From positions 160,001 through 224,000 of the forward strand of contig OZ244922.1 of NCBI GenBank assembly GCA_965221905.1: 64,000 nt of DNA. The letters are read 5' to 3'. The notes under the pieces were generated by a model. The model was not told the origin of the DNA, searched no databases, and saw only the letters and a program-made list of their open reading frames with translations. Positions 9,234 through 58,731 of the stretch are shown one piece after another; positions within the stretch are counted from its first letter, which is position 1, and each line of letters starts with the position of its first letter. This DNA comes from Chloroflexota bacterium (GTDB lineage: Bacteria > Chloroflexota > UBA11872 > VXOZ01). Made by a program: the position numbers and the translations under genes.

Positions 9234-9588
9234 CTACTCCGAATGCTCCAAGTCTGTCTGTACTCGCACCAGATGCTTCTTCACAGCAGGCAGATCTACA
9301 GTGAGTATCCTCCATACCTGTTCTACGATAATCCCGTAATACCTGTGAATCAGCACGTCGCGCAAGCCAGCGACCTTTTGCCAAGGAATGTCAGTGCCTT
9401 TCGCGGACCGCTGGGGGAATGTGCTTTGCGGCCTCACCAATTATCTCTAAACGACGGAACACCGCATCTTGCAGAAGAGAGTCTTCTTCAAATCCATCTG
9501 TGTCCATCCTGGCAAGGTAATTCTCTATCTTCTCAATGCTCTCCAGCATGTCCTGCACGAATAGGCCGACGCCCCGCTCCTCACTCAT
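9234..9588 (-). pseudogene. HepT-like (DUF86) HEPN toxin, frameshifted
   Basis: N-half ...DAVFRRLEIIGEAAKHIP...RERH* and C-half DIPWQKVAGLRDVLIHRYY (RxxxxH) lie in different frames; shift near 9393. Confidence 0.85.
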
Positions 9589-9896
9589 AAGAGAGGAACC
9601 TCTTCGCTAAGTATGCGGTCGCGCAGGAGTGGCTTTATGGCAGCGTATTGCACCAGATCAACACGCCGTTCCAAAACCTCTTCGAGTTCAAGCTTAATCC
9701 CGATAAAGTCGAATAAGCTTGCCTGCCCGTCAAGCTCTACTAGGATATCGACATCACTCTCCGGCGTCGCCTCACCGCGCACGAACGACCCAAACATGCC
9801 CGCACGCTTAATACCATGCCGCCGCAAAACGGGGAGAATACGCTCCCGGATGTCTAGTGCGTCTGCAGCCTGATTGCTACTCGAATTCGTCGCCAC
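9585..9896 (-). CDS. MntA-like minimal nucleotidyltransferase antitoxin
   Basis: FGSFVRGEATPESDVDILVE motif; GTG 9896 after GGAGG; ATGA overlap with the HepT gene. Confidence 0.88.
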   Translation of the reverse strand: MATNSSSNQAADALDIRERILPVLRRHGIKRAGMFGSFVRGEATPESDVDILVELDGQASLFDFIGIKLELEEVLERRVDLVQYAAIKPLLRDRILSEEVPLL

Positions 9897-10071
9897 GATG
9901 TTCCTCCGCTCCATGTCGCTGAAGCTGCCCGCCTGCCAAAGACCGTTTCTCTCGCCGTACCTCTGCGATTGCATGGGCCACCACGCGTTCGATCTCCTCT
10001 TACAACACACCCGCGAACGGCTCTCGCATCTCCGCCAGTACCTTGAGCTGCGCTCGACGTTCTTGTTCCAC
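9877..10071 (-). pseudogene. degraded antitoxin-like fragment
   Basis: VEQERRAQLKVLAEMREPFAGVL*EEIERVVAHAIAEVRREKR resembles C-terminal helices of Phd/AbrB-type antitoxins; TAA at 10000-10002. Confidence 0.4.
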
Positions 10072-10162
10072 ACAATCTCCGTGTTATAGTCCTTCGCCTT
10101 CGGTCAATTCACTTAAGCCCTTGTAATTCTTAGTTTTCGTACAATTTCGTACACTATACTAT

Positions 10163-11743
10163 GTGGGTGAGTGGCGAGCTACAGCTCTTCCTGGAATGAT
10201 TGTTGCTGCAAGTATGAGACCCTCTCAAATGCCTGTTGACCCATCGAAAGAGGATGCGAAGAAGAAAGTCGCAGACTTCGCTGCAAACCTTGAGAGAAGG
10301 CTCAAGAACCTCCGTCCAAGGGATTACCTACCCTTTGCCGCGGCAACTCTTAGGAAAGTATTGGAGAGGCAGGAGATTTGGGACACTTATCCCCCGCACT
10401 TCATCCTTCACTCAATGGAGGCGAATTGTGCGTTCAATCGCAGAGGGCTTCATGCAAAAGTTGGGCGTCGAATATTCGACAAGGTTATGAAGCTTTATAC
10501 GAGCTACGACCCTCCCGCTGACCTACACGCCCTAGAGAAAAATACCGATGTGGAAACTGACCTATTCATGCTGGCCAAGGCTAGACAACAGTTCCCAATT
10601 CAGAGTACTTGGGGAACAAATGACCTTGCTGCTGGAATCATGATATTCCAGGAGAAACACTTCCCCAACGTACATCGTCTCTTCCAAAGTAAATTCGGCA
10701 TAGGATTCGCCGAGTGGATAAGGCTTTGTTTCATCGTGTTCACCGCTAGCAAACAAAACGACGTAGTTCTCGCTGAGCGTGTTGTACAAGCAATTAGGGA
10801 AATGGTTTCGGACCGTGTATGTGAGGCAGGATTCGACCTACTCTCACTCACAATAGATGAGCTGCGGCTCAATTACACTAGATCACGCTGTGAGCTACCC
10901 TCAATCCTACTGGAGTATCAACTCCAACCTATGTTTGCAGAAAAACCACTTGTACATCTTGATGAAGATACCTACTTAGTCTCTCACCCTGAGTTTCTGG
11001 TCTTTCGCGGTGGCGAAGGGATATATGACTTGTGCCACGAGCACTTCGAAGATGAGTTTGGCTCAGAGATGGGGGATGCCTTTGAAGACTACGTTGGCAA
11101 ACTCTTAGCCGAAGCTCCCGGCGACAAGACCCTGATGACGGAAGCGGAATTGAGCCAAGTCATACAGGGGAAGATATGTGACTATCTCTTGGCGATGAAG
11201 GACCTTGTTCTCTTGATTGAATGCAAGGCCACTTCCTACTCTTCCAAGTATGTTACTGACTGTGCAGTTAAAAACGATAACTCGACAACCAAGATCGTTG
11301 ATGGCATGCACCAATTGTCTAATGTCGCACAACAACTAGAGTGTCCAGAATTGAAAACCCACATTGGCGAAATTGGGGACCGAATGGTCATCGGCCTTGT
11401 CGTTACCTTCAAGCATATCTGGTTTACCCATAGCATGCTTTACCGTTCGATTATTGATTCTCGGGTCGATTTGGCCAAGGAATTCACTTCACGTCCTCAG
11501 GCATTTCACATTCGAGCGCTCCAATTGCTCATTCTAAACGCCTGCGGAGGGGGAAGGCTCTCTTCTTTGTTCCGGCGAATGCTGGACTCAGAAGTACATT
11601 ATCCTTACGACTGGGACAACTACCTCCTCGATGTCAATCGCGAGCAGCAAGAGAGGGGATTGAAGCCAAGTATCCCTCTGTTGGAGACTGCGTGGGAACG
11701 CTTTGTACAAGATGCAATTCAAGTACATACCGACTTAGGATAG
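10163..11743 (+). CDS. hypothetical protein with C-terminal PD-(D/E)XK/NERD-like nuclease motif
   Basis: GDAFEDYV...ICDYLL...LLIECKA; visibly AT-richer than flanks; exact start uncertain. Confidence 0.6.
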   Translation: MGEWRATALPGMIVAASMRPSQMPVDPSKEDAKKKVADFAANLERRLKNLRPRDYLPFAAATLRKVLERQEIWDTYPPHFILHSMEANCAFNRRGLHAKVGRRIFDKVMKLYTSYDPPADLHALEKNTDVETDLFMLAKARQQFPIQSTWGTNDLAAGIMIFQEKHFPNVHRLFQSKFGIGFAEWIRLCFIVFTASKQNDVVLAERVVQAIREMVSDRVCEAGFDLLSLTIDELRLNYTRSRCELPSILLEYQLQPMFAEKPLVHLDEDTYLVSHPEFLVFRGGEGIYDLCHEHFEDEFGSEMGDAFEDYVGKLLAEAPGDKTLMTEAELSQVIQGKICDYLLAMKDLVLLIECKATSYSSKYVTDCAVKNDNSTTKIVDGMHQLSNVAQQLECPELKTHIGEIGDRMVIGLVVTFKHIWFTHSMLYRSIIDSRVDLAKEFTSRPQAFHIRALQLLILNACGGGRLSSLFRRMLDSEVHYPYDWDNYLLDVNREQQERGLKPSIPLLETAWERFVQDAIQVHTDLG

Positions 11744-11779
11744 TGCTCTCCGAAATTTTGCATCTGACCAGACGATTCC

Positions 11780-13192
11780 TCATTCGTGAGGTTTCGCCGG
11801 TTGGCGCTCCGCAAAATCCCGCGCCAGTCTTGCCGCCTTCTCTCTATCGTCCTCCCCCAGTTCGCCGTCTATAACAAGCTCAAGCAGGTGGTCCTTGATC
11901 GGCTTGATCCAGGGGCCTGGGCCGCGGTCGAACATGGTCATCAGGTCGTTGCCGTCGAGCGGGCTTTGCAGCTTGGCCACGTCCTCTTGCGCTTGGAGTG
12001 CGCGGCAGCGGGCCTCCAGATGATTCACGCGGGCCACACCCGCCTCCACGCGGGAACGGCGGTAGCTAGTAATGTCGGCGCGAGAGAGGGCAAAGAGATC
12101 GTCCGTAATTCCCTCGGTCTCGCGCAGGAAGCGGCGCACCGCGCCGTCAGTCCAGTCCGGCGTGTAGAGATTAGGGCGCAGGTGCTCGGCCACTAAACGC
12201 TGAATCTGCTCCATGCTCTCCCGGTCGAACCGCAAGCGCCGCAGAATGCGCCGCGCCATGCGCGCGCCCACGGTCTCGTGACGGAAGAAGTGCACCTTGC
12301 CGTCCTGCTCCGTCTTCGTTTTCGGCTTCCCAATGTCGTGGAGCAGCGCCGCCCAGCGCAGCACCGGCGTAGCGGTCACGTTCTCCACCACCTTGAGCGT
12401 GTGGCCGAATACATCCTTGTGCCGCCGGTCATCCTGGCTGGTGCCGCGCAACGGCAGGAGCTCTGGGAGGAAATGCGCCGCCAACCCGGTATCGCAGAGA
12501 ATTTCTAGACTCTCCATCGGCCGGTCGGCCAGCAACAAGCGGGTCATCTCGGCAGCGATGCGTTCCTCGCTCACGTGCTCTAGTGCGCTCGCCTGCTGTT
12601 GCAGCGCTTCATGCGTGGCCAGATCGATGCGAAAACCAAGCTCAGCCGCAAACCGCACGGCGCGCAACATGCGCAGCGGGTCTTCGCGAAAGCGCTCCAC
12701 AGGATCGCCCACGGCGCGGATGAGACCCTTCTGCAAGTCTTGCAGCCCATGAAAGGGATCGAGTACACCGCCTGTAGACGGCTCTTGCGCGATAGCGTTG
12801 ATCGTGAAGTCGCGGCGCGACAGGTCGTCTTCTAAGTTCGTACCGAAAGTAACCGCGGGCTTGCGGTTGGCGAAGGCATACTGCTCGCTGCGGTAGGTCG
12901 TAATTTCCACTACCCAGTCGCCAAAGATGGCGCCTATTGTGCCGAATTTCTCCCCCACGTCATAGCGAGAATCCGGATTTGCTTGCGCCAGTAAGCGTTT
13001 GATGACCGGTGGGTGGGCATCGGTAGCCAGGTCCAGGTCGTGGGTCGGGCGGTGGAGGAGCGCATCGCGGACCGAGCCCCCCACGAGGTACAGCTCGTAA
13101 CCCGCCTCCGCGAAATGCGACGCCAAGGCTCGCAAAGTCGGCGCTGCTACGAGATTTTCCACGACGCTGGTACCGCGCACAGCCACTCCCAC
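11780..13192 (-). CDS. cca: CCA tRNA nucleotidyltransferase with HD domain
   Basis: LVGGSVRD, DLDLATD, RRDFTINA, EDPLRMLRAVRF, LLHDIGKP. Confidence 0.9.
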   Translation of the reverse strand: MGVAVRGTSVVENLVAAPTLRALASHFAEAGYELYLVGGSVRDALLHRPTHDLDLATDAHPPVIKRLLAQANPDSRYDVGEKFGTIGAIFGDWVVEITTYRSEQYAFANRKPAVTFGTNLEDDLSRRDFTINAIAQEPSTGGVLDPFHGLQDLQKGLIRAVGDPVERFREDPLRMLRAVRFAAELGFRIDLATHEALQQQASALEHVSEERIAAEMTRLLLADRPMESLEILCDTGLAAHFLPELLPLRGTSQDDRRHKDVFGHTLKVVENVTATPVLRWAALLHDIGKPKTKTEQDGKVHFFRHETVGARMARRILRRLRFDRESMEQIQRLVAEHLRPNLYTPDWTDGAVRRFLRETEGITDDLFALSRADITSYRRSRVEAGVARVNHLEARCRALQAQEDVAKLQSPLDGNDLMTMFDRGPGPWIKPIKDHLLELVIDGELGEDDREKAARLARDFAERQPAKPHE

Positions 13193-33503: not shown

Positions 33504-34205
33504 TTGCCACGTGAGAAAGTGCTCATAATCGAGGACGACGACAATCTGCAAGAGGCGCTACGCTATCGCCTCGAGCAGGACGGTTATGTAGTGCATAGCG
33601 CAATGGACGGCGAGGAAGGGCTGGACCTGGCACGGGAGGTCCTGCCCGATTTGATTATCCTCGATATCATGCTGCCGGTGTTGGACGGCCTGGAGGTCTG
33701 CCGCATCATTCGCCAGGAGACCGCAGCGCCGATCATCATGCTCACGGCGAAAGGTGAAGAGGTGGATCGCGTGGTCGGTCTCGAATTGGGCGCGGATGAC
33801 TACGTTGTAAAGCCCTTCAGCACACGCGAATTGCTGGCCCGCATGCGTGCCGTGCGACGACGCGCACGGTCGCGTGGGGAGGCTCTCCCTGCCGCTGACA
33901 CGGCAACTGTGCTCAGTGCCGGAGATCTCCAAGTCAACCTTTCCAGCCACACCGCGAGGCTTGGAGATCAGGCGCTAGCGCTCAAACCCAAGGAATTCAG
34001 TCTATTGGCGTTGCTGATGTCCGGCCGTAACCGCGTCTTTACCCGCGACCAGATTCTCGAGCGCATATGGGGATTCGATTGGGTCGGCGACAATCGCACA
34101 GTAGACGTTCACGTACGGCGACTGCGGGAGAAGATCGAAAAGGATCCCAGTGATCCCGCCCACATTGTGACCGTGCGCGGCGTAGGCTACCGGTTTGAGG
34201 GATGA
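33504..34205 (+). CDS. phoB: OmpR/PhoB-family response regulator (probable phosphate regulon)
   Basis: LDIMLP, LTAKGEE, GADDYVVKPF, VDVHVRRLREK; adjacent to a PhoR-like kinase and phoU. Confidence 0.75.
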   Translation: MPREKVLIIEDDDNLQEALRYRLEQDGYVVHSAMDGEEGLDLAREVLPDLIILDIMLPVLDGLEVCRIIRQETAAPIIMLTAKGEEVDRVVGLELGADDYVVKPFSTRELLARMRAVRRRARSRGEALPAADTATVLSAGDLQVNLSSHTARLGDQALALKPKEFSLLALLMSGRNRVFTRDQILERIWGFDWVGDNRTVDVHVRRLREKIEKDPSDPAHIVTVRGVGYRFEG

Positions 34206-35980
34206 AATTTCCGCGAACGCTGCAATGGCGCATAACGCTTGCCTTCACCGCGTTGATCATACTCACGCTGGGTGTAGCGAGTTTCTATCTCGTCACGGTC
34301 GTGCGCAGCAGCTATCTGACCAACCTCGAAACGCGACTGGAGCACGAAGCGCGCCTCGTCGCCGAAGCCGGTGCCCGCTACTTCTCCGAGCAACCGGATA
34401 CTAGTGCGCTCCAAGCGGCCGGTGAGCGCATGAGCGCTAACATTGCGGCGCGGGTTACCCTCATCGCACGCGACGGCACAGTGCTCGCCGACAGTGCGGA
34501 AGACCCGGCACGCATGGCGAATCAGGCCGTCCAACCCGAGGTAGCGCGTGCACTAAACGCCGGAGTGGGAATCAGTACGCGACGCAGCGGCACTGCGGGC
34601 GAGGAACTGATTTACGTTGCCGTGCCCGTGATTGCCGGGGAGAGCGTGCAAGGAGTGGCGCGGGTAGCGGCGCCTGCGGCACAGGCGCAGGATAGCGTAA
34701 ATCGCAGCATCACCGTTATCGCCCTGATAGGCATTGCCGGAGCGGTCTTCGCGGTGCTGCTTGGGTACGGCGTGGCGTCGCGCACCTCTCGTTCCATCGG
34801 GGCGCTCACGGAAGGCGCCCGCCAGCTTACGGCCGGCGAGCTCGACTACCGGGTGCAGGCGCAAGGGAGAGACGAAACGCAGGAACTTGCGCAAGCGTTC
34901 AACCGCATGGCGTTGTCCCTGCGCAATCTCGTACGCGATCTCTCGGTGGAACGAGGCAAATTGACGGCTGTGCTCAATACGATGGCCGATGGCGTCGTTG
35001 TAATCGACGGCAGCGGTAGGATCGTGCTGGTGAATCACGCGGCGGAAGAGATTCTCAACCTCACCGGCGGTGACGTCTTAGACCGCCGCTTTACTGAGAT
35101 CATCCGCGACCACAACCTGCAACAGCTTGTCGCCCGCTGCATGGAGCAGCGCGAGGTACAGCACGAGGAGGTGGAGATTCCGCAGTGGCAGCGGTATCTG
35201 AGTGTCATAACCACGCCCTTGGCCGAGCACGGCGATTCAAGCGTTTTGCTGACGATGCACGACCTGACGCGCATTCGCCAGGTGGAAACGACCAGAAAAG
35301 AATTCGTGAGCAACGTCTCCCATGAGTTGCGGGGTCCGCTGGCGGCCGTGAAGATTCTGGCTGAGTCGCTGGCGAGCGGCGCTCTCAAGGAGAAAAAGCG
35401 GGCTAAGGACTTCCTGCGTCGTATCAACGGTGAGATCGACCGCATGGCTGCCATGGTGAATGAGCTGATGGAGCTCTCACGTATAGAAAGCGAACAGTCC
35501 GGTCTCCAGCATGCGCCGCTCGATCTGCACCCATTCATCGACGCACTGCGCGAAGAGCATTACGAGCGGACGGAAAAGCGCAAGATCGCACTCGAAGTCG
35601 CGATTCCCGAATACTTGCCGCAGGTCCGCGGCGATGAAGAGAAGCTGCGCCAGGTTTTCGACAATTTGCTAAGTAACGCTTTGAAGTTCACGCCCGAAGA
35701 CGGCCGGATATCTCTCTCTGCACAGCAGGAGAACGGCAAGGTCTGCTTGCGCGTGGCCGACACGGGTGTTGGCATACCGCGGAAGCACCTCCCCCACATC
35801 TTCGAGCGCTTCTATAAGGTGGACCGCTCGCGCCACAGCGAGGGGTTTGGCTTAGGACTGGCCATCGTGAAGCACATCGTGCAAGCCCACGGCGGAGAGA
35901 TTCACGCGGAGAGCGCTGAAGGACAGGGCACGACCTTTACGGTGATCCTGCCTGCTGTGGCTGACGACCCTGCCGACTAA
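34202..35980 (+). CDS. phoR: PhoR-like sensor histidine kinase (HAMP-PAS-HisKA-HATPase)
   Basis: EFVSNVSHELR, NLLSNALKF, DTGVGI, IFERFYKVD, GLGLAIVKH. Confidence 0.78.
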   Translation: MKFPRTLQWRITLAFTALIILTLGVASFYLVTVVRSSYLTNLETRLEHEARLVAEAGARYFSEQPDTSALQAAGERMSANIAARVTLIARDGTVLADSAEDPARMANQAVQPEVARALNAGVGISTRRSGTAGEELIYVAVPVIAGESVQGVARVAAPAAQAQDSVNRSITVIALIGIAGAVFAVLLGYGVASRTSRSIGALTEGARQLTAGELDYRVQAQGRDETQELAQAFNRMALSLRNLVRDLSVERGKLTAVLNTMADGVVVIDGSGRIVLVNHAAEEILNLTGGDVLDRRFTEIIRDHNLQQLVARCMEQREVQHEEVEIPQWQRYLSVITTPLAEHGDSSVLLTMHDLTRIRQVETTRKEFVSNVSHELRGPLAAVKILAESLASGALKEKKRAKDFLRRINGEIDRMAAMVNELMELSRIESEQSGLQHAPLDLHPFIDALREEHYERTEKRKIALEVAIPEYLPQVRGDEEKLRQVFDNLLSNALKFTPEDGRISLSAQQENGKVCLRVADTGVGIPRKHLPHIFERFYKVDRSRHSEGFGLGLAIVKHIVQAHGGEIHAESAEGQGTTFTVILPAVADDPAD

Positions 35981-36797
35981 GGCGGCACGTGTCCGGTCTC
36001 GATATTGTCGCGCGCATGTCCCTGAACGCGCTACTAGCGTAGAGGCTCGACATGTCGTGCCCCTACGTGTCACGCAAAGAGTACCTACCCACCCGCCGGG
36101 CTCCTTCCCCGGTGGGCGGCAAAACACCGCCTTTGGCGCCCGGCACGCTCACGTACAGTTGTCGCCGGTTCGGCCTAGCGTTCGTACTCTCTTTTACATC
36201 CTATCTGTCACGAAGGATCGGGTGATAGATTGTTTCATCGATCATCCCACGATTATCGTGCGCAAAACGCAGTACTGGCGCTGCCCCGTGTGCAATGCGG
36301 TTGCCGGTCAAGAGTCTCTGCGCTGCGCGGAGGCAATTGAGTACATCTCGAGCAGCGCCTAGTTTTCGGTTGTTTGTGCGCTACGGCAAACAACGCATAA
36401 CTGGCGCGGGCACAAGCAGTGCGGGCGTTTAGGCGGAAGTTTGCGAGAAGATGAGGCCTTGTTCAACAGGGACCCGGCAGGTGTACCCTTCCAGGTTCGA
36501 AAGAGAGCAGCAGCAAAGAGGGTTTCGACGGGCCGGACTCTCTAAGTCTGTGCTGCACGGGTAGGCAAATGCCCGTCAAGAGTGCAAAATAGAAAAGGAT
36601 ACGGCCCGGGTCTGCGGCATGCGTAAGTCCTAAAGCGGAAGGCGGAGCGCAGTGCGGCGATGCCGGCGCCCGGCATGTTTGTGCCGGTAATGTGCGCCGA
36701 GGGTTTTACCGTCCGTGGAAAGTGAAGTCCGCCCGCGTAGGCGCATAGAAGTGGTTGTCGAGAGAGTAGCCGGGGAGCGGTGGAAAGGGGCAGTGCC

Positions 36798-37469
36798 ATG
36801 GTACGCACGAATATCGAGAATCGACTGGACGAGATCCAGGATGAAGTCCTTGCGCTGGCGAGCATGGTGGAGAAGGCCATTACTCATGCCATAGATGCCT
36901 TGCGGGAGCGCGACCTGGAGGCATCTATGGCCGTCGTCGCGTTCGATGACGTGATCGACGAAAAGCGCTTTGCCATCGAGGAAAGCTGCGTTGACCTGCT
37001 CGCTACCCAGCAACCGGCTGCCGGTGACCTGCGTTGGGTCATAGCTTTGCTCCACATAGCGGTCGAGTTGGAGCGCATGGGCGACTATGCGGAAGGCATC
37101 GGCAAGATCAGCCTGATGATGGGCGACGAGCCGCCGCTCAAGCCGCTCATCGATATTCCGCGCATGGCGGAAATGTCCATCAGCATGCTCCATCGGAGCA
37201 TCGACGCGCTGGTGACCCGGGACATAGATTTGGCCAGAAAGGTGTGCGAGGCCGATGATGACGTCGATGCGCTCCATGAGCAAATCTATAACGAACTGCT
37301 CCTATTTATGATCAAAGACCCGAGGAGCATCCAGCGCGCAACATACTTGCTCTGGGTAACACACGACCTAGAGCGCACGGCCGACCGCGCGACGAATGTC
37401 GCTGAACGCGTGATCTACATGGTGACCGGCAAGATGCTGGACCTGAACCTCTCGAAGCAGGTGATTTGA
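36798..37469 (+). CDS. phoU: phosphate signaling protein PhoU
   Basis: QQPAAGDLR, ELERMGDYA, DLERTADRATNVAERVIY. Confidence 0.95.
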   Translation: MVRTNIENRLDEIQDEVLALASMVEKAITHAIDALRERDLEASMAVVAFDDVIDEKRFAIEESCVDLLATQQPAAGDLRWVIALLHIAVELERMGDYAEGIGKISLMMGDEPPLKPLIDIPRMAEMSISMLHRSIDALVTRDIDLARKVCEADDDVDALHEQIYNELLLFMIKDPRSIQRATYLLWVTHDLERTADRATNVAERVIYMVTGKMLDLNLSKQVI

Positions 37470-37594
37470 TCGCCAAGGAGGCGGTGTTAGGGCGTGTGCA
37501 CTATGGCAAGCGGAGAGATTTAGAAGATTGAGAGAAGAGCGGCAATGTAGCGTTAGCGCAGTAGTGTTACGTGCTGTGATACGTCAAGCAGACC

Positions 37595-38014
37595 TTGCTA
37601 AAGGAGAAATCTCGATTGAAACGGGTACTCTTCGTCTGCGTGCACAATGCGGGGCGCAGTCAGATGGCGGAGGCGTTTCTCCGTCAGCTTGCCGACGGCA
37701 AGGCGGAGGCGCGTTCCGCGGGCACGGCGCCGGGCGAGCGGGTGAATCCAGTTGCCGTGCAGGTCATGGCCGAGCGCGGGATTAGTCTCGATGCCCATCG
37801 GCCCAAGTTACTGACGCAAGCGTTGGCGGATTGGGCGGACAGAATTTTCACCATGGGCTGTGGCATCGACGAGTCATGTCCGACATTGCGAACAGAAGTA
37901 GAAGACTGGGAACTCCCCAATCCCAGCGGACAGCCGTTGGCCGTGGTGCGCGGCATCCGCGACCAAATCGAGAAGCGGGTCAACCTTCTTCTACGCGAAC
38001 TCGACGATTCATAG
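37595..38014 (+). CDS. arsC: arsenate reductase (LMW-PTP family)
   Basis: LFVCVHNAGRSQMAE, TMGCG...CP, WELPNP. Confidence 0.85.
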   Translation: MLKEKSRLKRVLFVCVHNAGRSQMAEAFLRQLADGKAEARSAGTAPGERVNPVAVQVMAERGISLDAHRPKLLTQALADWADRIFTMGCGIDESCPTLRTEVEDWELPNPSGQPLAVVRGIRDQIEKRVNLLLRELDDS

Positions 38015-38801
38015 CACCGCCACTCTGGGTCTCGGGCTGCTGTACAGTTGATGATCTCTGTACATAGTCTTCCAAGTACTGGGATACCACCTTACTGATC
38101 TCCCGGTGGATTTTCTTCGGGCTGGGCGTCGCGTCGATCATTTTGAAGCCGTACTCGTCTGCGAGCCTATGGAAGTTCTTGCGCAGCGAGGCCTGGTATT
38201 TCAGAAAGCTCTCGAACATGCTGCTGCCCATCTGCAGATCCATGCCGGACTCCCAGTAGTTGAGCTCGCCGTACTTCTCCAACGTGCGGTGGAAGAGCAC
38301 TTCCGGCTCCGCGTCGAGGAAGACGATCAAGTCCGGTTCCAGCGCAATGCCGAACAAGCGTTTCAGCCACTTCAGTTCGGCGCCGCGCGCCAAGTCGCGC
38401 GCCATGAGCGTGTAGATGTAGCGGTCGGCAATAATTACAAATCCGGCTTGCATCGCGGGTACAATGCGGCTTTCTAACTGATCGGCAAGGTCGGTTGCGT
38501 AGAGCAGACTCAAGGTCGTCTTTCCCAGCAGATTGCCTTGCTTCGCGGAGGAGATGGCCTTGGCCAACAGGTCCGACCGCCGGATGCCCATCTCCAGCAC
38601 GGCGTGTCCCGCCGACTCCAGCGATTCCTTGAGCATTTGGGCCTGCGTGGAGCGCCCGGAACAGTCAGAGCCTTCAATGACGATCAGTGGGCCGCCGAGT
38701 TCGAGGTCGTCGAGGTACGGCAGGCCGCAGCCATAGAACCGTGCGCGTGTGGGTACTACAGTAGAAATTTGCTCATCCCCTTGTTGCTGCTTGTCGTCCA
38801 T
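37980..38801 (-). CDS. thymidylate-kinase-like protein with degenerate P-loop
   Basis: EGSDCSGRST (K to R), ADRYIYTLMARD, YWESGMD. Confidence 0.85.
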   Translation of the reverse strand: MDDKQQQGDEQISTVVPTRARFYGCGLPYLDDLELGGPLIVIEGSDCSGRSTQAQMLKESLESAGHAVLEMGIRRSDLLAKAISSAKQGNLLGKTTLSLLYATDLADQLESRIVPAMQAGFVIIADRYIYTLMARDLARGAELKWLKRLFGIALEPDLIVFLDAEPEVLFHRTLEKYGELNYWESGMDLQMGSSMFESFLKYQASLRKNFHRLADEYGFKMIDATPSPKKIHREISKVVSQYLEDYVQRSSTVQQPETQSGGAMNRRVRVEEG

Positions 38802-38894
38802 GCGGTCTCGTGGGCCTACTACGAGTAATGCGCAAGGCTATTGCCCGGCGGTGAATGAGGCGGCGCGGCCGCTCCTTCAGTCAAGTTTCTTCCT

Positions 38895-39587
38895 CTAGGC
38901 TGGCGGCACATAGTCCGCCAGCTTCTCCTGCACCACTTTTTGCACTTCTCCCCAGGTCTCATGTATCGTGCGCGTTGCATCGATGACGGCGAACTGCTCG
39001 CTGCGCGCCATCTTGTCGTATTGGTCCTTTATCCTGCCCTGGAACAGCTTGAAGCTCTCCACCGGATCGAGAGAGAGACCGGTGTCCATGCCGGCTTCGT
39101 AGTACTTTAGCGAGGGCCGGCCGAAGAGGATCCGGGAGATCGATACTTCCAACGGCGCGTGGAAATAGAAGGCTATGGTCGGCTGCACGGCAAAGTTGTA
39201 GGTGTTACGCACCCACTGCAGATCGCAGCCCCGCGCCACGTCACGCGCGTAAGCGGTGTAGACATACCTATCGGCCAGCACGATACACCCGGCGTGGAGC
39301 GGCGGGAGGATGACTTTCTCGTAGCGGTCGGCAAAGTCGCAGGCGTGGATGAGGCTAAACGTGGTGGGTGTGAGCTGCTCCTTCCGCTTTGCCCGACGTG
39401 TTGCCTGCTTGACGATGGCCGAGGAGTTCCACTCGGTAAAGACAACCGGGTACCCTTGCGACTGCAACCAGACGCGCAGGAGGTGGAGTTGGGTGCTCTT
39501 GCCGGAACCGTCGCAACCTTCTACGACGATCAAGCGGCCGGGGTACTGCTTGTTGAGGCCTAAGCCGCGGACCTTTTTCATTGCCAT
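38895..39587 (-). CDS. thymidylate-kinase-like protein with canonical P-loop
   Basis: EGCDGSGKSTQ, FTEWNSS, ADRYVYTAYARD, YYEAGMD. Confidence 0.88.
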   Translation of the reverse strand: MAMKKVRGLGLNKQYPGRLIVVEGCDGSGKSTQLHLLRVWLQSQGYPVVFTEWNSSAIVKQATRRAKRKEQLTPTTFSLIHACDFADRYEKVILPPLHAGCIVLADRYVYTAYARDVARGCDLQWVRNTYNFAVQPTIAFYFHAPLEVSISRILFGRPSLKYYEAGMDTGLSLDPVESFKLFQGRIKDQYDKMARSEQFAVIDATRTIHETWGEVQKVVQEKLADYVPPA

Positions 39588-39966
39588 TTGTGGTTTCTCC
39601 CAACTCTTGGATTACCGGACGAATCACCAAAGGGGTAGAGTTTGCCGCTATTGGCGTACCGCCGGCAGAGACTGCTGTGTTTCACCGCTTTGAGCGTCAG
39701 CCAATCTGGTGACGGAAACTTGCTGTTCAGCACTGTCCGTAGAGTGTGGAAAACACTCAATACCGACATGCCGGCACGGAAGCTTGCCACCGTATCAAGT
39801 ACTGGGCCTGAGTACATTGCTGACACGTTCCCAGAACCGGTCTCCGCCGAAATGACGCGTGGCAGGCCGCCTACGCGATACGCGATCCGTGGCCCGGCAC
39901 CGCCCATGACGGCTTTCTCGGCGAACTCATGAGAAGACCATCTTGTGCCCGTCAATGTAAGACAGT

Positions 39967-41619
39967 CTACCCAATAACCCCAGAGTTAGCCCGCTTCAAG
40001 CGTCCGTGTGAGTCATCAAGAATAAAGTGTACACCAAATGCGGTTGCAATGTCATTGAGCGTCGCCTCCGTTTCGCGGAATTCGCAAACTGCATCGGGAT
40101 CAGCAGCGAGGCTCAACGTTATTCCTCTGGGATCGCCTGAAATCGCACACGTGACGGCTTCCACAAGGCACGACTCGCTGCGATCGAGCGCCTCGCTGAG
40201 TTGTAGGACCGCGCCGAGCTTGGTCACGGTGTCAAGATCGTGCTTTTCCAAGAGCGAACGGTACTCCGGCTGGCGTTTCAATGGGCCGCCGCTGCCGTTG
40301 TGCGCGGCCACGAGGCCTGCAACCATGAGTAACTCGCGGTGGGTCAGGCCGTCGATGCCCGTACGCGTGAGCAGGTAGAAGCCGTGCTCGTCGTGGTTGT
40401 AGAAATTTACGGCAATGCCCACGTCGTGAAGGAGCGCCGCGATTTGCAGCAGCCTGCGCGCTTCGGCATCCAGACCGTGCACCGGTGCGAGTTGATCGAA
40501 AATTGACAGTGCCAGGTCGGCCACGTGGTTGGCGTGGGTCTCGTCAACGTTGTAGTACCGCATGAGGTTAGTGGTGGCAAAGAGCGCCGGATCGGGCACG
40601 CGCGGCTCCACCATGTCGCCGCCCAGCACGTGGTTCAGGAACAAGCCTTCCCGCAGGCCTCTGCCGCTAATGGCAAGCGCAGTGGCGCCAATAGTCTTCG
40701 CCAGCCCGCACACCACCGCCGCACCCGCGACGATGATGTCTGCCCGCTTAGTGGAAAGTCCGGGAACCTTGCGCCGCTCTTCGAGAGTTAACTTGCGGAG
40801 CATGGCGTAGATCTCTTCTACGGCGCCGATTGGGAGAATCATGCCGTGGAGGAGGTCCAGCGGATAGCCTGTCTGCCGCCGGTAGATTTTTGCCAAGTTG
40901 CGCACGGTGCCGCCGATGCCAATCAAAACCGGCTTGCCGTTGTGCGAGAATGTCCCATTGCGGCGCCCAGCGCTCCCGGACGCCGGTTTTTCATCAAGCG
41001 AGTGTGCGGCTGCTTCGCCCTGCCCATTGAGCCAGGAGAGCGCCCCAAGATTGGCCGCGATGTGTTGCTCCAGAGTGCGGATCTGCTTGTTCGTCGGTCT
41101 ATCGCGATTGAGAAAATCGGTGGTGAGTGTGATGGCGCCAAGGGGCAGGCTTGTCTTGTGGGTAGCGGCGCGTTGATGGGCGCGCACGATTTGCACGCTG
41201 CCGCCGCCGACGTCTACCATCACGCCGTTCGCCGCTGCAGTGCTGTTGACCGCTGCCACATAGTCGTAGTAGGCCTCCTCATCGCCGGATATGATGTTGA
41301 CGCGCAGACCGGTTTCGGCTTTGATGCGGTCAACCACCTCCGGCCCGTTGCGGGCGCGCCGCAGGGCGCTGGTGGCGACGCCGATGACGTGCGTGACGCG
41401 ATGGGCTGTGCAGAAGCGCGCTAAAACGCGCGATATCTCCAACGTACGCTCAATCGCTTCCGCCGTGAGGTCGCCGTTTGCATCGAGCTGCTCGCCCAGC
41501 CGCAGCGTCTCGCGCAGCTCGTCTACGAGCTTGAACGCGCGGTCTGCATACACCTCAAGAAGCGCCAAACGCGCTGAATTCGAGCCAATATCAATGACAG
41601 CCACGCGTTCTCCGGTCAT
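39967..41619 (-). CDS. ppx: exopolyphosphatase Ppx/GppA with HD domain
   Basis: IDIGSNS, ATSALRRA, DVGGGS, GLREG, LLHDVG. Confidence 0.92.
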   Translation of the reverse strand: MTGERVAVIDIGSNSARLALLEVYADRAFKLVDELRETLRLGEQLDANGDLTAEAIERTLEISRVLARFCTAHRVTHVIGVATSALRRARNGPEVVDRIKAETGLRVNIISGDEEAYYDYVAAVNSTAAANGVMVDVGGGSVQIVRAHQRAATHKTSLPLGAITLTTDFLNRDRPTNKQIRTLEQHIAANLGALSWLNGQGEAAAHSLDEKPASGSAGRRNGTFSHNGKPVLIGIGGTVRNLAKIYRRQTGYPLDLLHGMILPIGAVEEIYAMLRKLTLEERRKVPGLSTKRADIIVAGAAVVCGLAKTIGATALAISGRGLREGLFLNHVLGGDMVEPRVPDPALFATTNLMRYYNVDETHANHVADLALSIFDQLAPVHGLDAEARRLLQIAALLHDVGIAVNFYNHDEHGFYLLTRTGIDGLTHRELLMVAGLVAAHNGSGGPLKRQPEYRSLLEKHDLDTVTKLGAVLQLSEALDRSESCLVEAVTCAISGDPRGITLSLAADPDAVCEFRETEATLNDIATAFGVHFILDDSHGRLKRANSGVIG

Positions 41620-41662
41620 ATACTCTCCTTGTTAGACTTCCTTTACGGGAGCCCAACCCGCG

Positions 41663-42661
41663 TTAGGTCGATGTTGATACGCATTCTCGCAGGCGTTGAC
41701 GGAACTCGCAGCCGGTGAGGTGCTCCCAGATGGCCGGGAACGTATGGGCGTTCGTCCGCACGCGGTCATCGCAATACGCGAGGTATCCGGCAAGCGCTTC
41801 CCCGGCTGCGGCCGGGTAACGCGCGTCGTCCGTTGCGCACTGCCACTTTTTCATGAGCTTACGCAGGTCTTCACCGGCTACGTACGCGTCGTTTATTTCG
41901 CCCAGGTGGTCTTGAGCATGCTTGAAGTCTTCGATGGCGGCTTCTGCCTGCGGGGAAAGGGTCTCGCGCAGGAATTCTAAGGCGTACCGCAGGCGCTTAC
42001 AGTCGATACGCAGGGTGTGCAGCGTTTCAATCGACGCTCCGTGCAACGAAGGCCCATAGGCGAGGAGTTTTTCATAGCGCTTTGCGATGAGGCGCGGTGT
42101 CACGGCGGCAACGAGCGGTTCTTGCGGAGCAGCCGCCTGGCCGTTCAGCGTTCCTGAAGCCGCTACCGGCGGGCCCACCAACTCAAGGAGTGGGCCAATC
42201 CGTTGCTTCAGCAGGCAATAACGCTTGCCTGCCAGATACCTCACCATTGCGTTGCGGGCTCGTTCTCGCTGTCTCTGCCACCGCTGCACCAGCGGCGCGA
42301 ACGTATCCTGTGTGGGCGCCGGCAATTCCGCCCGGTACGCTTCTAGATTCGCAAGCATGACGTCGCAGTCGCGTGCCGGACCGAGGGCGCGCCCCAAACG
42401 CCGTAGGTCTTTGCGCAGGTAGGCTGCGTGTTTCTTAGGGAGGTAGGGTCGAAACAACCTCACTGCCGCGCGCATCCGGCGCACGGCAACACGCATATCG
42501 TGCAATGCTTCGATGTCACTGCCGTCGATAGAGCCGGCTTCGTGTCTCAGCATGCGGTTGAAGTGAAAGCGCAGGGTCTTGCGTGCGGCATCTGATACAG
42601 TGTCGTGCCGCTCTATACCCGGACGTTTGGGCGACCGCTTGAGGTCGGGTGGCGTGGTGAT
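41663..42661 (-). CDS. CHAD domain (polyphosphate-binding) protein
   Basis: LHDMRVAVRRMR, LHTLRIDCKRLRY, QDHLGEIND; frame stays open and CHAD-like upstream of ATG 42553; start tentatively ATC 42661. Confidence 0.85.
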   Translation of the reverse strand: MTTPPDLKRSPKRPGIERHDTVSDAARKTLRFHFNRMLRHEAGSIDGSDIEALHDMRVAVRRMRAAVRLFRPYLPKKHAAYLRKDLRRLGRALGPARDCDVMLANLEAYRAELPAPTQDTFAPLVQRWQRQRERARNAMVRYLAGKRYCLLKQRIGPLLELVGPPVAASGTLNGQAAAPQEPLVAAVTPRLIAKRYEKLLAYGPSLHGASIETLHTLRIDCKRLRYALEFLRETLSPQAEAAIEDFKHAQDHLGEINDAYVAGEDLRKLMKKWQCATDDARYPAAAGEALAGYLAYCDDRVRTNAHTFPAIWEHLTGCEFRQRLRECVSTST

Positions 42662-43379
42662 GGCTCTCTCTTCAATGGTGGTAGAAGGCTGCGGTAGTGT
42701 TTAGTTTGGCTCTGATTCGCGTGATTTGGCGGTGCCTGGCCAGTGCTGGGCTAACGAGCCAGGGTGGGATTAACCGCGTGACCGGCGCAGTGGCGCCCAC
42801 TCCATTTGGCGTGTATTCACCTACCAGATCCTGACGCGAAACGGGCCTTCGCACAACATTAATCTACCAAGACTAGCAAGAGATTGCCAGACTTTGATCG
42901 CTGCATTGTAGCTGGAGGTGTTATGGGCATTGCGGCATTGCGCTGAGCGCGCCTCAACGCGCGGGCATGCTCCCCAGCGTGTCATATTCCTGGTGCATGC
43001 TTTTGTGTGTGGTCAAAAGGCAAAGGATAGGGGGCGGTGTACCTGTTTTTTGGTTGCCTACCTGCCTAATAGTGTCGTTGCTTCACGCCTAAACCCTATC
43101 CCCAGGGCAATCGCGTCTAAATGAGATTTATGTAATGCCATCCGGCGACGTTACCTCTAAGCGTGCGCTTCTTTGCCCTGTCTACGGTGCGACTGCGCCA
43201 ACCAGAGCACCTAAATCTATTGACAGTCGGCTTATATCACGGTATTTTGTGATAAAGGTGCCGCGAAACCAACCAAAAATAAGACGCGATTGCCCTGCCC
43301 TATTCCAGCGTCCTATACGGCCAAACCTGTGATACTCTCAGAACAGAGGGCATGCTTGGTACGGAGTGAGAGAGTGGCT

Positions 43380-43670
43380 ATGGTCTGGCGCAAGGGGGTC
43401 ATACGGCGCGAAACCGGCACGGGTGAACCGGTCACGGTAAGCGGCGTGACGGTCGTGCCGCAATCCCAGGCATTCGCTGTGTGGTTGCCCTTCGGCGGTA
43501 TCCTGTGGAACCGGCCGGTCGGCGTCCTCATCAAGCGTGGCGCGGAGACACGCCGCATACCGATTACGGATGTGAGCGCGACGATATGCCGGGTACTTTT
43601 CGGGATCGGTGTGCTATGTGTCAGTATCGCTATCATTCGGTTAATCCGAGAGAGGGGAGCACGCCCATGA
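43380..43670 (+). CDS. small GerW/YtfJ-like membrane-anchored protein
   Basis: GEPVTVSGVTVVP...RPVGVLI...RRIPI plus C-terminal hydrophobic helix. Confidence 0.55.
   Translation: MVWRKGVIRRETGTGEPVTVSGVTVVPQSQAFAVWLPFGGILWNRPVGVLIKRGAETRRIPITDVSATICRVLFGIGVLCVSIAIIRLIRERGARP

Positions 43671-57777: not shown

Positions 57778-58731
<954 letters not shown>

Follow-up and report, generated by a model that had tools for sequence, protein, structure and literature searches.

Four co-oriented genes on the minus strand of a 64-kb window, the whole stretch of DNA analyzed here, from an uncultured Chloroflexota bacterium very likely form a polyphosphate (polyP) module, with a CHAD granule protein, an exopolyphosphatase (Ppx) and a two-subunit polyP kinase of the PPK3 type encoded by two thymidylate-kinase-like (Tmk-like) genes, A and B. 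Membership of A and B in the PPK3 family is supported by sequence, a tree, obligate pairing and gene neighborhood. The locus is a member of a published family and not a new system, as PPK3 has already been scored in four Chloroflexota genomes (Data S1 of PMC12995831).

The characterized member of this family is the heteromeric, reversible polyP kinase of Sulfolobus acidocaldarius (SaPPK3), composed of Saci_2019 (cPPK3) and Saci_2020 (rPPK3) (Hofmann et al., J Biol Chem 2026; PMC12995831). The sequence-only reading had pointed to such a two-subunit enzyme from this organism, and the report is real. As described in that paper, both genes adjoin ppx and CHAD, neither protein has dTMP kinase activity, which is found instead in Saci_0893, and Saci_2020 is inactive by itself. 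SaPPK3 strongly favors ATP formation from ADP and polyP, and makes polyP at high ATP/ADP. Most PPK3 genomes are described as lacking PPK1 and PPK2, and the operon neighbors include PPX, CHAD, SixA, Pst and others. PPK3 was defined only in 2024-2026, from a thermoacidophilic archaeon, with bacterial members, Chloroflexota among them, already predicted in the same work (Fig. 5, Data S1). Among the 83 Chloroflexota rows of Data S1 examined, PPK3 was scored as 1 in four (GCA_016887485.1, Pelolinea submarina, Ktedonobacteria bacterium brp13, and Ktedonosporobacter rubrisoli), of which all four have PPK2 and two have PPK1. In our literature search, no assay of a bacterial PPK3 member was found, nor any work on thymidylate-kinase-like PPK3 besides the two versions of Hofmann et al.; the other matches were, by their listing, older PPK1/PPK2 or CHAD papers. 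The earlier view that such systems are little characterized in bacteria thus holds for biochemistry, but not for prediction.

Pfam matches were obtained for each of the four genes, bearing out their proposed identity, and the proposed co-orientation is confirmed as well. The CHAD-domain protein (41663..42676, minus strand) belongs to the polyphosphate-granule-associated family (PF05235, E = 2e-59). Its first canonical start is an ATG at 42553 (ORF 41663-42553), and when read from this ATG the protein enters the PF05235 profile at position 10. No stop interrupts the 49 codons 5′ of this ATG, which contain no in-frame ATG, GTG or TTG, and an in-frame ATC lies at 42661, 36 codons 5′ of the ATG. 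The upstream peptide is conserved in related loci L001-L004, and L002 and L004 have a TTG in frame at the corresponding position. Judged from the reading frame and its conservation, the true start is probably ATT at 42676 or ATC at 42661, and the end coordinate of 42661 given originally was reasonable. The exopolyphosphatase (39967..41619, minus strand) is a Ppx/GppA family protein with a C-terminal domain III/HD (PF02541, 3.9e-55; PF21447, 6e-24), scoring 275.7 bits against TIGR03706, under the cut-off of 307.

Between ppx and the kinase pair lies a 379-bp spacer (39588..39966, minus strand) with a 125-aa ORF that matched no Pfam family; the spacer itself matched no Rfam family. The sole Rfam match in the 37500-43600 region was to sRNA P10 inside the CHAD gene, which at 22.6 bits was below the threshold of 37 and was read as chance. 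Neither promoter-like sites (2 observed, 2.2 expected from shuffles) nor terminator-like sites (4 observed, 5.3 expected) were enriched in the spacer. It is shared with L001 only, at 88% identity; in L002-L004, about 110 bases separate the matched stretches of Ppx and A. The spacer may have room for an internal promoter, and transcription of the genes as a single operon is therefore only putative. Tmk-like A (38895..39587, minus strand; 230 aa; PF02223, 1.9e-21) and Tmk-like B (37980..38801, minus strand; 273 aa; PF02223, 1.2e-21) are separated by 93 bp.

The module converges on a set of plus-strand genes. A low-molecular-weight (LMW) phosphatase/ArsC-family gene (37595..38014; PF01451, 5.3e-23) overlaps the 3′ end of B by 35 bp with its own 3′ end and is found in the same position in L001-L004. 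Beyond it lie genes for PhoU (36780..37469; TIGR02135, 192 bits, cut-off 130), a PhoR-like sensor histidine kinase with HAMP-PAS-HisKA-HATPase architecture (34202..35980; TIGR02966, 298.6 bits, under the cut-off of 334) and a PhoB-like OmpR-family response regulator with Response_reg and Trans_reg_C domains (33504..34205; TIGR02154, 240.5 bits, under the cut-off of 296). The ArsC models likewise scored under their curated NCBIfam cut-offs, so the names PhoB, PhoR and ArsC denote likeness and not equivalogs; the convergence on phoB-phoR-phoU-arsC suggested initially stands for layout and for PhoU. We infer that a position facing PhoU and the PhoB/PhoR-like genes reflects a role in phosphate homeostasis. 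In a profile scan of 58 window ORFs of at least 90 aa (8 + 50 ORFs, one of the selected ORFs being replaced by a longer one that overlaps it), no PPK1, no PPK2 and no third Thymidylate_kin domain was found, as had been claimed for ppk1 and ppk2, and the same ORFs contained no SixA or Pst gene. The absence of ppk1 and ppk2 from 64 kb says little, because both occur together with PPK3 in Chloroflexota genomes and near some pairs.

Protein A has the features predicted for a catalytic subunit. It contains the P-loop GCDGSGKST, the ADRYVYTAYARD motif and YYEAGMD, and B contains the degenerate P-loop GSDCSGRST, ADRYIYTLMARD and YWESGMD, so that all of the motifs quoted in the first description, including the DRY and Y.E.GMD types, are present. 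The best solved match of A was STK_15430 of S. tokodaii (2plr/5h70; 1.8e-58, 201 bits), aligned end to end over residues 17-222, versus 73 bits for the top-scoring canonical Tmk. K30, D106-R107-Y108, R115, R119, R152, R157 and K161 are kept in A, and by alignment columns K30, R107, R115, R119, R152, R157 and K161 are conserved in 78-80 of 80 A-types. The basic residues K67, R88, R115, R119, R152, R157 and K161 are common to A and STK_15430, with R157 being a lysine in the latter. B-types do not have the basic residues R157 and K161 of the lid, and the retention in A of these two along with K30 and DRY agrees with the description in PMC12995831 of positive cleft residues conserved in cPPK3 and not in rPPK3. 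This residue pattern supports the assignment of A as the cPPK3-type catalytic subunit and B as the regulatory, rPPK3-type subunit.

Protein B had the same S. tokodaii chain as its best solved match (1.1e-40, 143 bits; best canonical Tmk, 47.6 bits). At the position of the Walker-A lysine B has arginine (R50), but it retains an intact DRY motif (D126-R127-Y128), the P-loop glycines and Ser/Thr, R135, R139 and R172. Alignment-based column counts gave arginine at the Walker-A position in 79/79 B-types of related loci. In the representative set of 108 B-type domains among the best 150 representatives, the lysine was absent from 81 of the 82 domains that are not gapped at this position (Arg 69, Cys 8, others 4). 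The DRX (DRY) arginine was present in 79/79 B-types of related loci and in 105 of 106 representative domains with a residue there, the only exception being P0314, which has 7 homologues. It is also kept in the B-types of Nitrososphaerota and Ktedonobacteria loci, groups that bear PPK3 according to PMC12995831. In that paper, replacement of the DRX arginine in rPPK3s is given as the cause of their inactivity. As B keeps R127, this reason does not fit B, and its predicted inactivity rests solely on the lysine-to-arginine change. Since the DRX arginine is retained across B-types, its replacement lies outside the operational (phylogenetic) definition of PPK3, and the published explanation may be limited to a small subgroup. 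The diagnostic signature that these alignments suggest is an A/B pair with the Walker-A lysine in A and Arg or Cys in B.

Pairing and phylogeny are consistent with a two-subunit enzyme. In 79 of 80 related loci, the gene directly after A on the same strand is of the B type, and the contig of the 80th ends right after A. The distance matrices of A and B were correlated across 78 loci (r = 0.88; the highest value among 500 shuffles was 0.14). Natural A-B fusions occur as well, including P0241 and others; in a 459-aa ORF of Alicyclobacillus tolerans (L044), the N-terminal half falls in A and the C-terminal half in B. The tree comprised 79 rows; one branch separated all 35 A-type rows from the rest (SH-aLRT 96), and others did so for the 35 B-type rows (91) and the 6 canonical Tmk rows (88), with the window proteins inside A and B. 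It came from a quick search with only six canonical Tmks, carried long-branch warnings and had no Sulfolobus sequence. The clade of the window, together with L001-L004, grouped with Armatimonadota, Methanocella and Bacillota. Ppx lay no more than 5 kb from the pair in 48/80 loci; the corresponding counts were 33/80 for a SixA-like histidine phosphatase, 26/80 for CHAD, 6/80 for PPK2 and 4/80 for PPK1. At least 589 confirmed stretches show the family to be widespread in bacteria, and its distribution suggests that it is frequent in soil bacterial phyla. No PPK3 pair was found in a plasmid collection, where the only matches were canonical Tmks at <35% identity.

The database annotation would make both genes a duplicated tmk encoding genuine dTMP kinases, which we consider very unlikely. 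Its basis is PF02223 at about 1e-21 for both proteins, the 'dTMP kinase' names that homologues carry in their source annotations, and scores of 83.5 and 83.6 bits for A and B against the NCBIfam dTMP-kinase equivalog TIGR00041, barely above its cut-off of 83.25, which accounts for the double label. In addition, an earlier report cited in the preprint of PMC12995831 described the S. tokodaii homologue as an unusual thymidylate kinase. However, canonical Tmks score far below the cPPK3 homologue for either protein, B is without the Walker-A lysine, and the pairing is obligate and has polyP genes as neighbors. The identity of A to canonical Tmk is 24-29%, and in an alignment with five canonical Tmks the TREPGG motif corresponds to TEWNSS in A and MGIRRS in B, with the AAR arginine corresponding to F85 and L105. 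Both TREPGG and the AAR arginine are taken here to belong to the dTMP site of canonical Tmk. Loss of dTMP-binding residues in PPK3 is stated in general terms by Hofmann et al., and the absence of dTMP kinase activity from Saci_2019 and Saci_2020, with Saci_0893 having it, also counts against this annotation (PMC12995831). The solved homologue, tree, pairing and neighborhood support the proposal that A and B would be polyP kinase subunits.

It is also conceivable, though improbable, that the pair is a polyP-linked phosphotransferase with another reaction, maybe just a polyP-dependent NMP/NDP kinase that would make no polyP in vivo, with polyP synthesis carried out by PPK1 or PPK2 elsewhere. The strong preference of SaPPK3 for ATP formation, the PPK2 and PPK1 genes of the PPK3-positive Chloroflexota in Data S1, and the loci with PPK1 or PPK2 within 5 kb of the pair would fit such a role, but SaPPK3 synthesizes polyP at high ATP/ADP and most PPK3 genomes are described as having neither PPK1 nor PPK2 (PMC12995831). 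Nothing in the window tells the two reaction directions apart. Catalysis by B itself, which would make both subunits active kinases or add a second substrate, would draw on its retained P-loop residues, D126-R127-Y128, R135, R139 and R172. The near-universal loss of the Walker-A lysine from B-types, the missing counterparts of R157 and K161, and the inactivity of Saci_2020 alone make this highly improbable.

In the favored PPK3 reading, A would be the catalytic kinase, moving phosphate reversibly from ATP to a polyP chain end and back onto ADP (ATP + polyP(n) <-> ADP + polyP(n+1)). B, a paralogue without the Walker-A lysine, would be non-catalytic by analogy with S. acidocaldarius, and would bind A, probably as an A2B2 tetramer, boosting its activity. 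Fusions, pairing and archaeal precedent point to an A-B heteromer. Four features are carried over from the archaeal enzyme (PMC12995831): the reaction, its bias at low ATP/ADP toward making ATP out of polyP, the activating effect of the second subunit, and the absence of dTMP kinase activity. We infer by this analogy that the bacterial pair would act in the same way.

A more tentative idea, which we regard as possible but doubtful, is that B is a ligand-binding pseudokinase in most PPK3s and not a dead scaffold, and that PPK3, as a third polyP kinase, is widespread among soil bacteria (Acidobacteriota, Chloroflexota, Bacillota, and others), in many cases beside PPK1 or PPK2, and not an archaeal specialty found in 'a few bacteria'. 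Ligand binding by B is conceivable because its P-loop is otherwise complete, DRY and three conserved arginines are present, and only the catalytic lysine is changed to Arg or Cys. B could then bind ATP/ADP or the polyP end, gating A by energy charge.

Phosphate storage and energy buffering are under the control of polyP kinases, enzymes that are also relevant to wastewater phosphorus removal and biocatalytic ATP regeneration. The comparative data leave the picture of what a PPK3 system is unchanged, with two refinements: B-types have the Walker-A arginine yet keep the DRY arginine, and the family is widespread in bacteria. The locus is a clean bacterial PPK3 example labeled 'dTMP kinase' twice in databases, and the A/B signature and distribution are helpful for annotation and for the choice of mesophilic test enzymes.

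Compared with known systems, the locus is most like that of SaPPK3, where neighboring genes for two Tmk-fold paralogues, catalytic first and regulatory second, also lie beside ppx and CHAD (PMC12995831). Here the host is bacterial, CHAD is upstream and not downstream, and the LMW phosphatase/ArsC-family gene faces the pair in place of SixA. B differs from rPPK3 as published in keeping the DRX arginine and having arginine for the Walker-A lysine. The bacterial PPK3 operons predicted in PMC12995831 (Fig. 5, Data S1) share the same identifying criteria, but the clade of the window is apart from the Ktedonobacteria and Anaerolineae PPK3s in our tree. Canonical Tmk (COG0125/TIGR00041) shares the PF02223 fold family, P-loop, DRY/DRH motif and lid with A and B, which differ in the loss of TREPGG and the AAR arginine, a lid insertion of about 12 residues, and their separate clades. 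Neighbors of canonical tmk are holB in E. coli and Ruegeria and a DNA polymerase III subunit gene in Collinsella, and never ppx in these. Two-domain class II PPK2 (such as P. aeruginosa PA3455) similarly combines an active kinase unit with an inactive paralogous unit thought to aid oligomerization (PMC12995831), but belongs to another P-loop kinase family (PF03976) that was not found in the window, and has its units fused and not split.

The window system is a predicted bacterial member of the PPK3 family of two-subunit, Tmk-fold polyphosphate kinases. Its two Tmk-like proteins, A and B, are the putative catalytic (cPPK3-type) and regulatory (rPPK3-type) subunits. This assignment, proposed in the sequence-only reading, is supported by structure matches, phylogeny, pairing, gene neighbors, and residue patterns. 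Over all PDB sequences, the best match to A was the S. tokodaii chain 2plr/5h70 (1.8e-58, 201 bits, residues 17-222), compared to 2.9e-19 and 73 bits for the best canonical Tmk. For B, the scores were 1.1e-40 and 143 bits to this chain and 47.6 bits to the best canonical Tmk. The chain is identified in PMC12995831 as the cPPK3 homologue STK_15430.

That paper (Hofmann et al., J Biol Chem 2026; preprint 10.1101/2024.08.28.610084) is the report behind the ppx-adjacent tmk-like pair of S. acidocaldarius named in the sequence-only reading. In the portions of PMC12995831 drawn on here, the ppx operon has the order sixA-ppx-saci_2019-saci_2020-CHAD, and thymidylate kinase was the former annotation of both Saci_2019 and Saci_2020. 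Saci_2019 (cPPK3) acts reversibly as a polyphosphate kinase, with ATP formation from ADP and polyphosphate favored. Saci_2020 (rPPK3) is inactive, yet boosts activity approximately six-fold at a 1:1 ratio, and the complex behaves like an a2b2 tetramer. Saci_0893 phosphorylates dTMP; these two proteins do not. Among the papers listed by literature searches, only the preprint and journal versions of this work dealt with thymidylate-kinase-like PPK3; the others were older ones on PPK1/PPK2 or CHAD.

Related loci were collected by scanning one genome per species with two A-type peptide patterns from an alignment (A1), which gave at least 599 stretches, 589 of them confirmed, and the best 80 were kept. 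Among these, the nearest (L001 to L004) were from Chloroflexota metagenome-assembled genomes with A proteins 93-98% identical to that of the window, which places the window in this phylum; tblastn identities in L001 (OZ244145.1), the closest relative, were 98% for A and 100% for B. In 79 of these 80 loci, the A-type gene is succeeded by a B-type gene in the same orientation, and in the remaining one the contig stops 93 bases past A.

The proposed comparison with true Tmk was made in a 79-row tree (quick IQ-TREE search, LG+C20) containing the window A and B, 34 picked loci, two fusion halves, one Clostridium plasmid protein, and six canonical Tmks (E. coli, B. subtilis, Collinsella, Bosea, Ruegeria, and Streptomyces). 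Single branches, with SH-aLRT values of 96, 91, and 88, set apart the A-types, the B-types, and the canonical Tmks, respectively, the canonical rows carrying a long-branch warning. The A and B subtrees were mostly congruent, and the A and B distance matrices were correlated over 78 loci (r = 0.88, maximum 0.14 in 500 shuffles); A and B are inherited together. In both subtrees the window clade sits beside Armatimonadota, Methanocella, and Bacillota, and apart from the pairs of Ktedonobacteria and Anaerolineae, a position that fits the horizontal spread described in the consulted text of PMC12995831. The plasmid protein (L087:3224-4642, Clostridium estertheticum NZ_CP086250.1) is named a "hypothetical protein," is Tmk-like, and shares 33% identity with A; its gene immediately follows one for a CYTH (triphosphate tunnel) domain and stands alone, without a B-type partner. 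The branch by which it joins the Nitrososphaerota A-types is very long, which makes its position uncertain.

Residues were compared in an alignment of 80 A-types and 79 B-types including the window proteins, with a fusion protein excluded and one locus lacking B. The Walker-A lysine position held Lys in 79 of 80 A-types (one gap) and Arg in all 79 B-types. DRY was intact in A and B, with its arginine invariant (80/80 A-types, 79/79 B-types), and R115, R119, and R152 (A numbering) were kept in both. Conserved only in A-types were E52-W53-N54-S55, T73-P74, F77-S78, H81 (Tyr in B), R88, and the lid residues R157 and K161. The S. tokodaii chain is basic at K67, R88, R115, R119, R152, R157 (as Lys), and K161. 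A B-type profile search over 1.84 billion cluster representatives gave 17,035 matches at E <= 1e-3, 3,695 at 1e-10, and 472 at 1e-30. The best 150 of the 17,035 representatives contained 108 B-type and 46 A-type domains. Within these 150, the 82 B-type domains with a residue at the lysine position had Arg (69), Cys (8), Lys (1), or another residue (4), the DRX arginine was present in 105 of 106 B-type domains, and 41 of 43 A-type domains had the Walker-A Lys. PMC12995831 describes the DRX arginine as replaced in rPPK3s, a loss that may be confined to Sulfolobales. These counts sharpen the predicted subunit signature to a Walker-A Lys in A versus Arg or Cys in B, with DRY in both, although some of the residue patterns may already be shown in the supplementary figures of PMC12995831.

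We read A as the probable catalytic subunit and B as a paralogue that specifically lost the phosphotransfer lysine and retains the rest of the phosphate-binding apparatus. This reading agrees with the catalytic/regulatory split described in the sections of PMC12995831 cited here. Natural A-B fusions were identified: a 459-aa ORF of Alicyclobacillus tolerans (locus L044), whose N-terminal half falls in the A clade and C-terminal half in the B clade, and the profile-search representative P0241 with its cluster, from Alicyclobacillaceae. Three longer representatives (P0244, P0268, and P0280) have an additional Ppx domain III/HD module located after A and a weaker segment resembling B. Obligate pairing, co-inheritance, the fusions, these longer proteins, and the S. 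acidocaldarius precedent provide indirect evidence suggesting that A and B associate physically. P0244, P0268, and P0280 belong with P0334, P0363, P0389, P0374, P0357, and P0387 to a set of proteins in which Tmk-like domains of this clade are fused to phosphate-related modules, the partners being Ppx domain III/HD, inorganic pyrophosphatase (InPase), SPX with DUF2252/APH, and an MFS transporter with DUF2252. A 2575-aa member of this set also bears an ADP-ribosyltransferase (ART-PolyVal) domain.

ORFs and Pfam matches confirmed the four co-oriented genes on the minus strand: a CHAD-domain gene (41663-42553 from the first ATG; PF05235, 2e-59), the exopolyphosphatase gene ppx (39967-41619; Ppx-GppA 3.9e-55, domain III 6e-24), A (38895-39587, 230 aa), and B (37980-38801, 273 aa), the last two matching PF02223 at about 1e-21. 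The motifs quoted from the sequence were all found, GCDGSGKST in A, GSDCSGRST in B, and ADRY..T..ARD and Y.E.GMD in both. The intergenic gaps are 43 bp (CHAD-ppx), 379 bp (ppx-A), and 93 bp (A-B). The CHAD frame is open through 42554-42700 on the minus strand and conserved at the protein level over 36-41 codons upstream of the first ATG. No in-frame ATG, GTG, or TTG occurs in this interval, and the start is likely at ATT (42676) or ATC (42661). An in-frame TTG occupies this spot in L002 and L004, which a 2-nt indel separates from the window, L001, and L003. The ppx-A spacer (39588-39966) is unusually long and contains a 125-aa ORF without a family match. It is common only to L001 (88% identity), with approximately 110 bp in its place in L002 to L004. 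It had no RNA-family match, and promoter-like and terminator-like sites in it were not significant. This stretch could have been inserted recently or could contain an internal promoter.

Convergence of the four genes on phoB-phoR-phoU-arsC, described in the sequence-only reading, was confirmed. Four facing genes are present on the plus strand, an OmpR-type regulator (33504-34205), a PAS histidine kinase (34202-35980), phoU (36780-37469), and an LMW-phosphatase/ArsC-family gene (37595-38014), but only PhoU scored above its cut-off (TIGR02135, 192 bits versus 130). The other three fell below curated NCBIfam cut-offs and are therefore called PhoB-, PhoR-, and ArsC-like, without equivalog status. 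The tie between the A-B module and the PhoB/PhoR-like genes and PhoU is one of position only, conserved in L001 to L004. The 3′ ends of B and the convergent LMW-phosphatase/ArsC-family gene overlap by 35 bp (37980-38014), as they do in the same four loci. Elsewhere in the window, GC drops to 0.49 at 10001-12000 versus approximately 0.60, and this region, which may be acquired DNA, holds a 526-aa ORF without a Pfam match (10163-11743) beside a nucleotidyltransferase-domain ORF (9585-10073). An IS110-family transposase (DEDD_Tnp_IS110 and Transposase_20) is encoded at 57778-58713 on the minus strand.

Neighbors were counted in the best 80 loci from clusters of the ORFs lying up to 5 kb from the pair, each cluster being named by Pfam. 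Ppx was found in 48, a SixA-like histidine phosphatase (His_Phos_1) in 33, CHAD in 26, a histidine kinase in 9, an OmpR-type regulator in 8, PhoU in 8, PPK2 in 6, PstS-like proteins in 5, and PPK1 in 4. Tallies from tblastn were consistent, giving 52 loci with Ppx, 43 of them with it no more than 600 bp from the pair, and 24 with CHAD. Only L001 to L004 matched the window order CHAD-ppx-A-B, the commonest arrangements being A-B alone (25), A-B-ppx (16), and A-B-ppx-CHAD (12). The presence of PPK2 and PPK1 near A-B, as in some Acidobacteriota (for example Pyrinomonadaceae L028:5040-5996 and L040:4303-6426), indicates that the classical kinases are not always replaced by PPK3. Neither PPK1, PPK2, nor a third Tmk domain was found among the 58 ORFs of at least 90 aa covering the window, as the sequence-only reading had stated for ppk1 and ppk2. 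In Data S1 of PMC12995831 (columns PPK1, PPK2, and PPK3), PPK3 is marked in 4 of the 83 Chloroflexota rows examined, with PPK2 in all four and PPK1 in two; absence from 64 kb thus does not imply absence from the genome. The best 80 loci comprised 74 bacterial, 5 archaeal, and 1 without an assigned domain, including 43 Acidobacteriota, 10 Chloroflexota, and 8 Bacillota, which is evidence that the family is far commoner in bacteria than "a few."

Compared to five canonical Tmks, the TREPGG segment is replaced by TEWNSS in A and MGIRRS in B, the AAR arginine aligns to F85 in A and L105 in B, and both proteins have a lid insertion of about 12 residues. The TREPGG and AAR segments presumably form the dTMP site of canonical Tmk. 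Nonconservation of dTMP-binding residues in PPK3 is stated in general terms in the consulted text of PMC12995831. Canonical tmk genes typically lie beside holB. The TIGR00041 cut-off admits both subunits and so allows their misnaming as "dTMP kinase." The PPK3 family is already published (preprint 2024, journal 2026), and the parts of PMC12995831 cited here already predict bacterial and Chloroflexota members. To that work the present analysis adds the subunit signature, the abundance of the family in bacteria, and the TIGR00041 misnaming.
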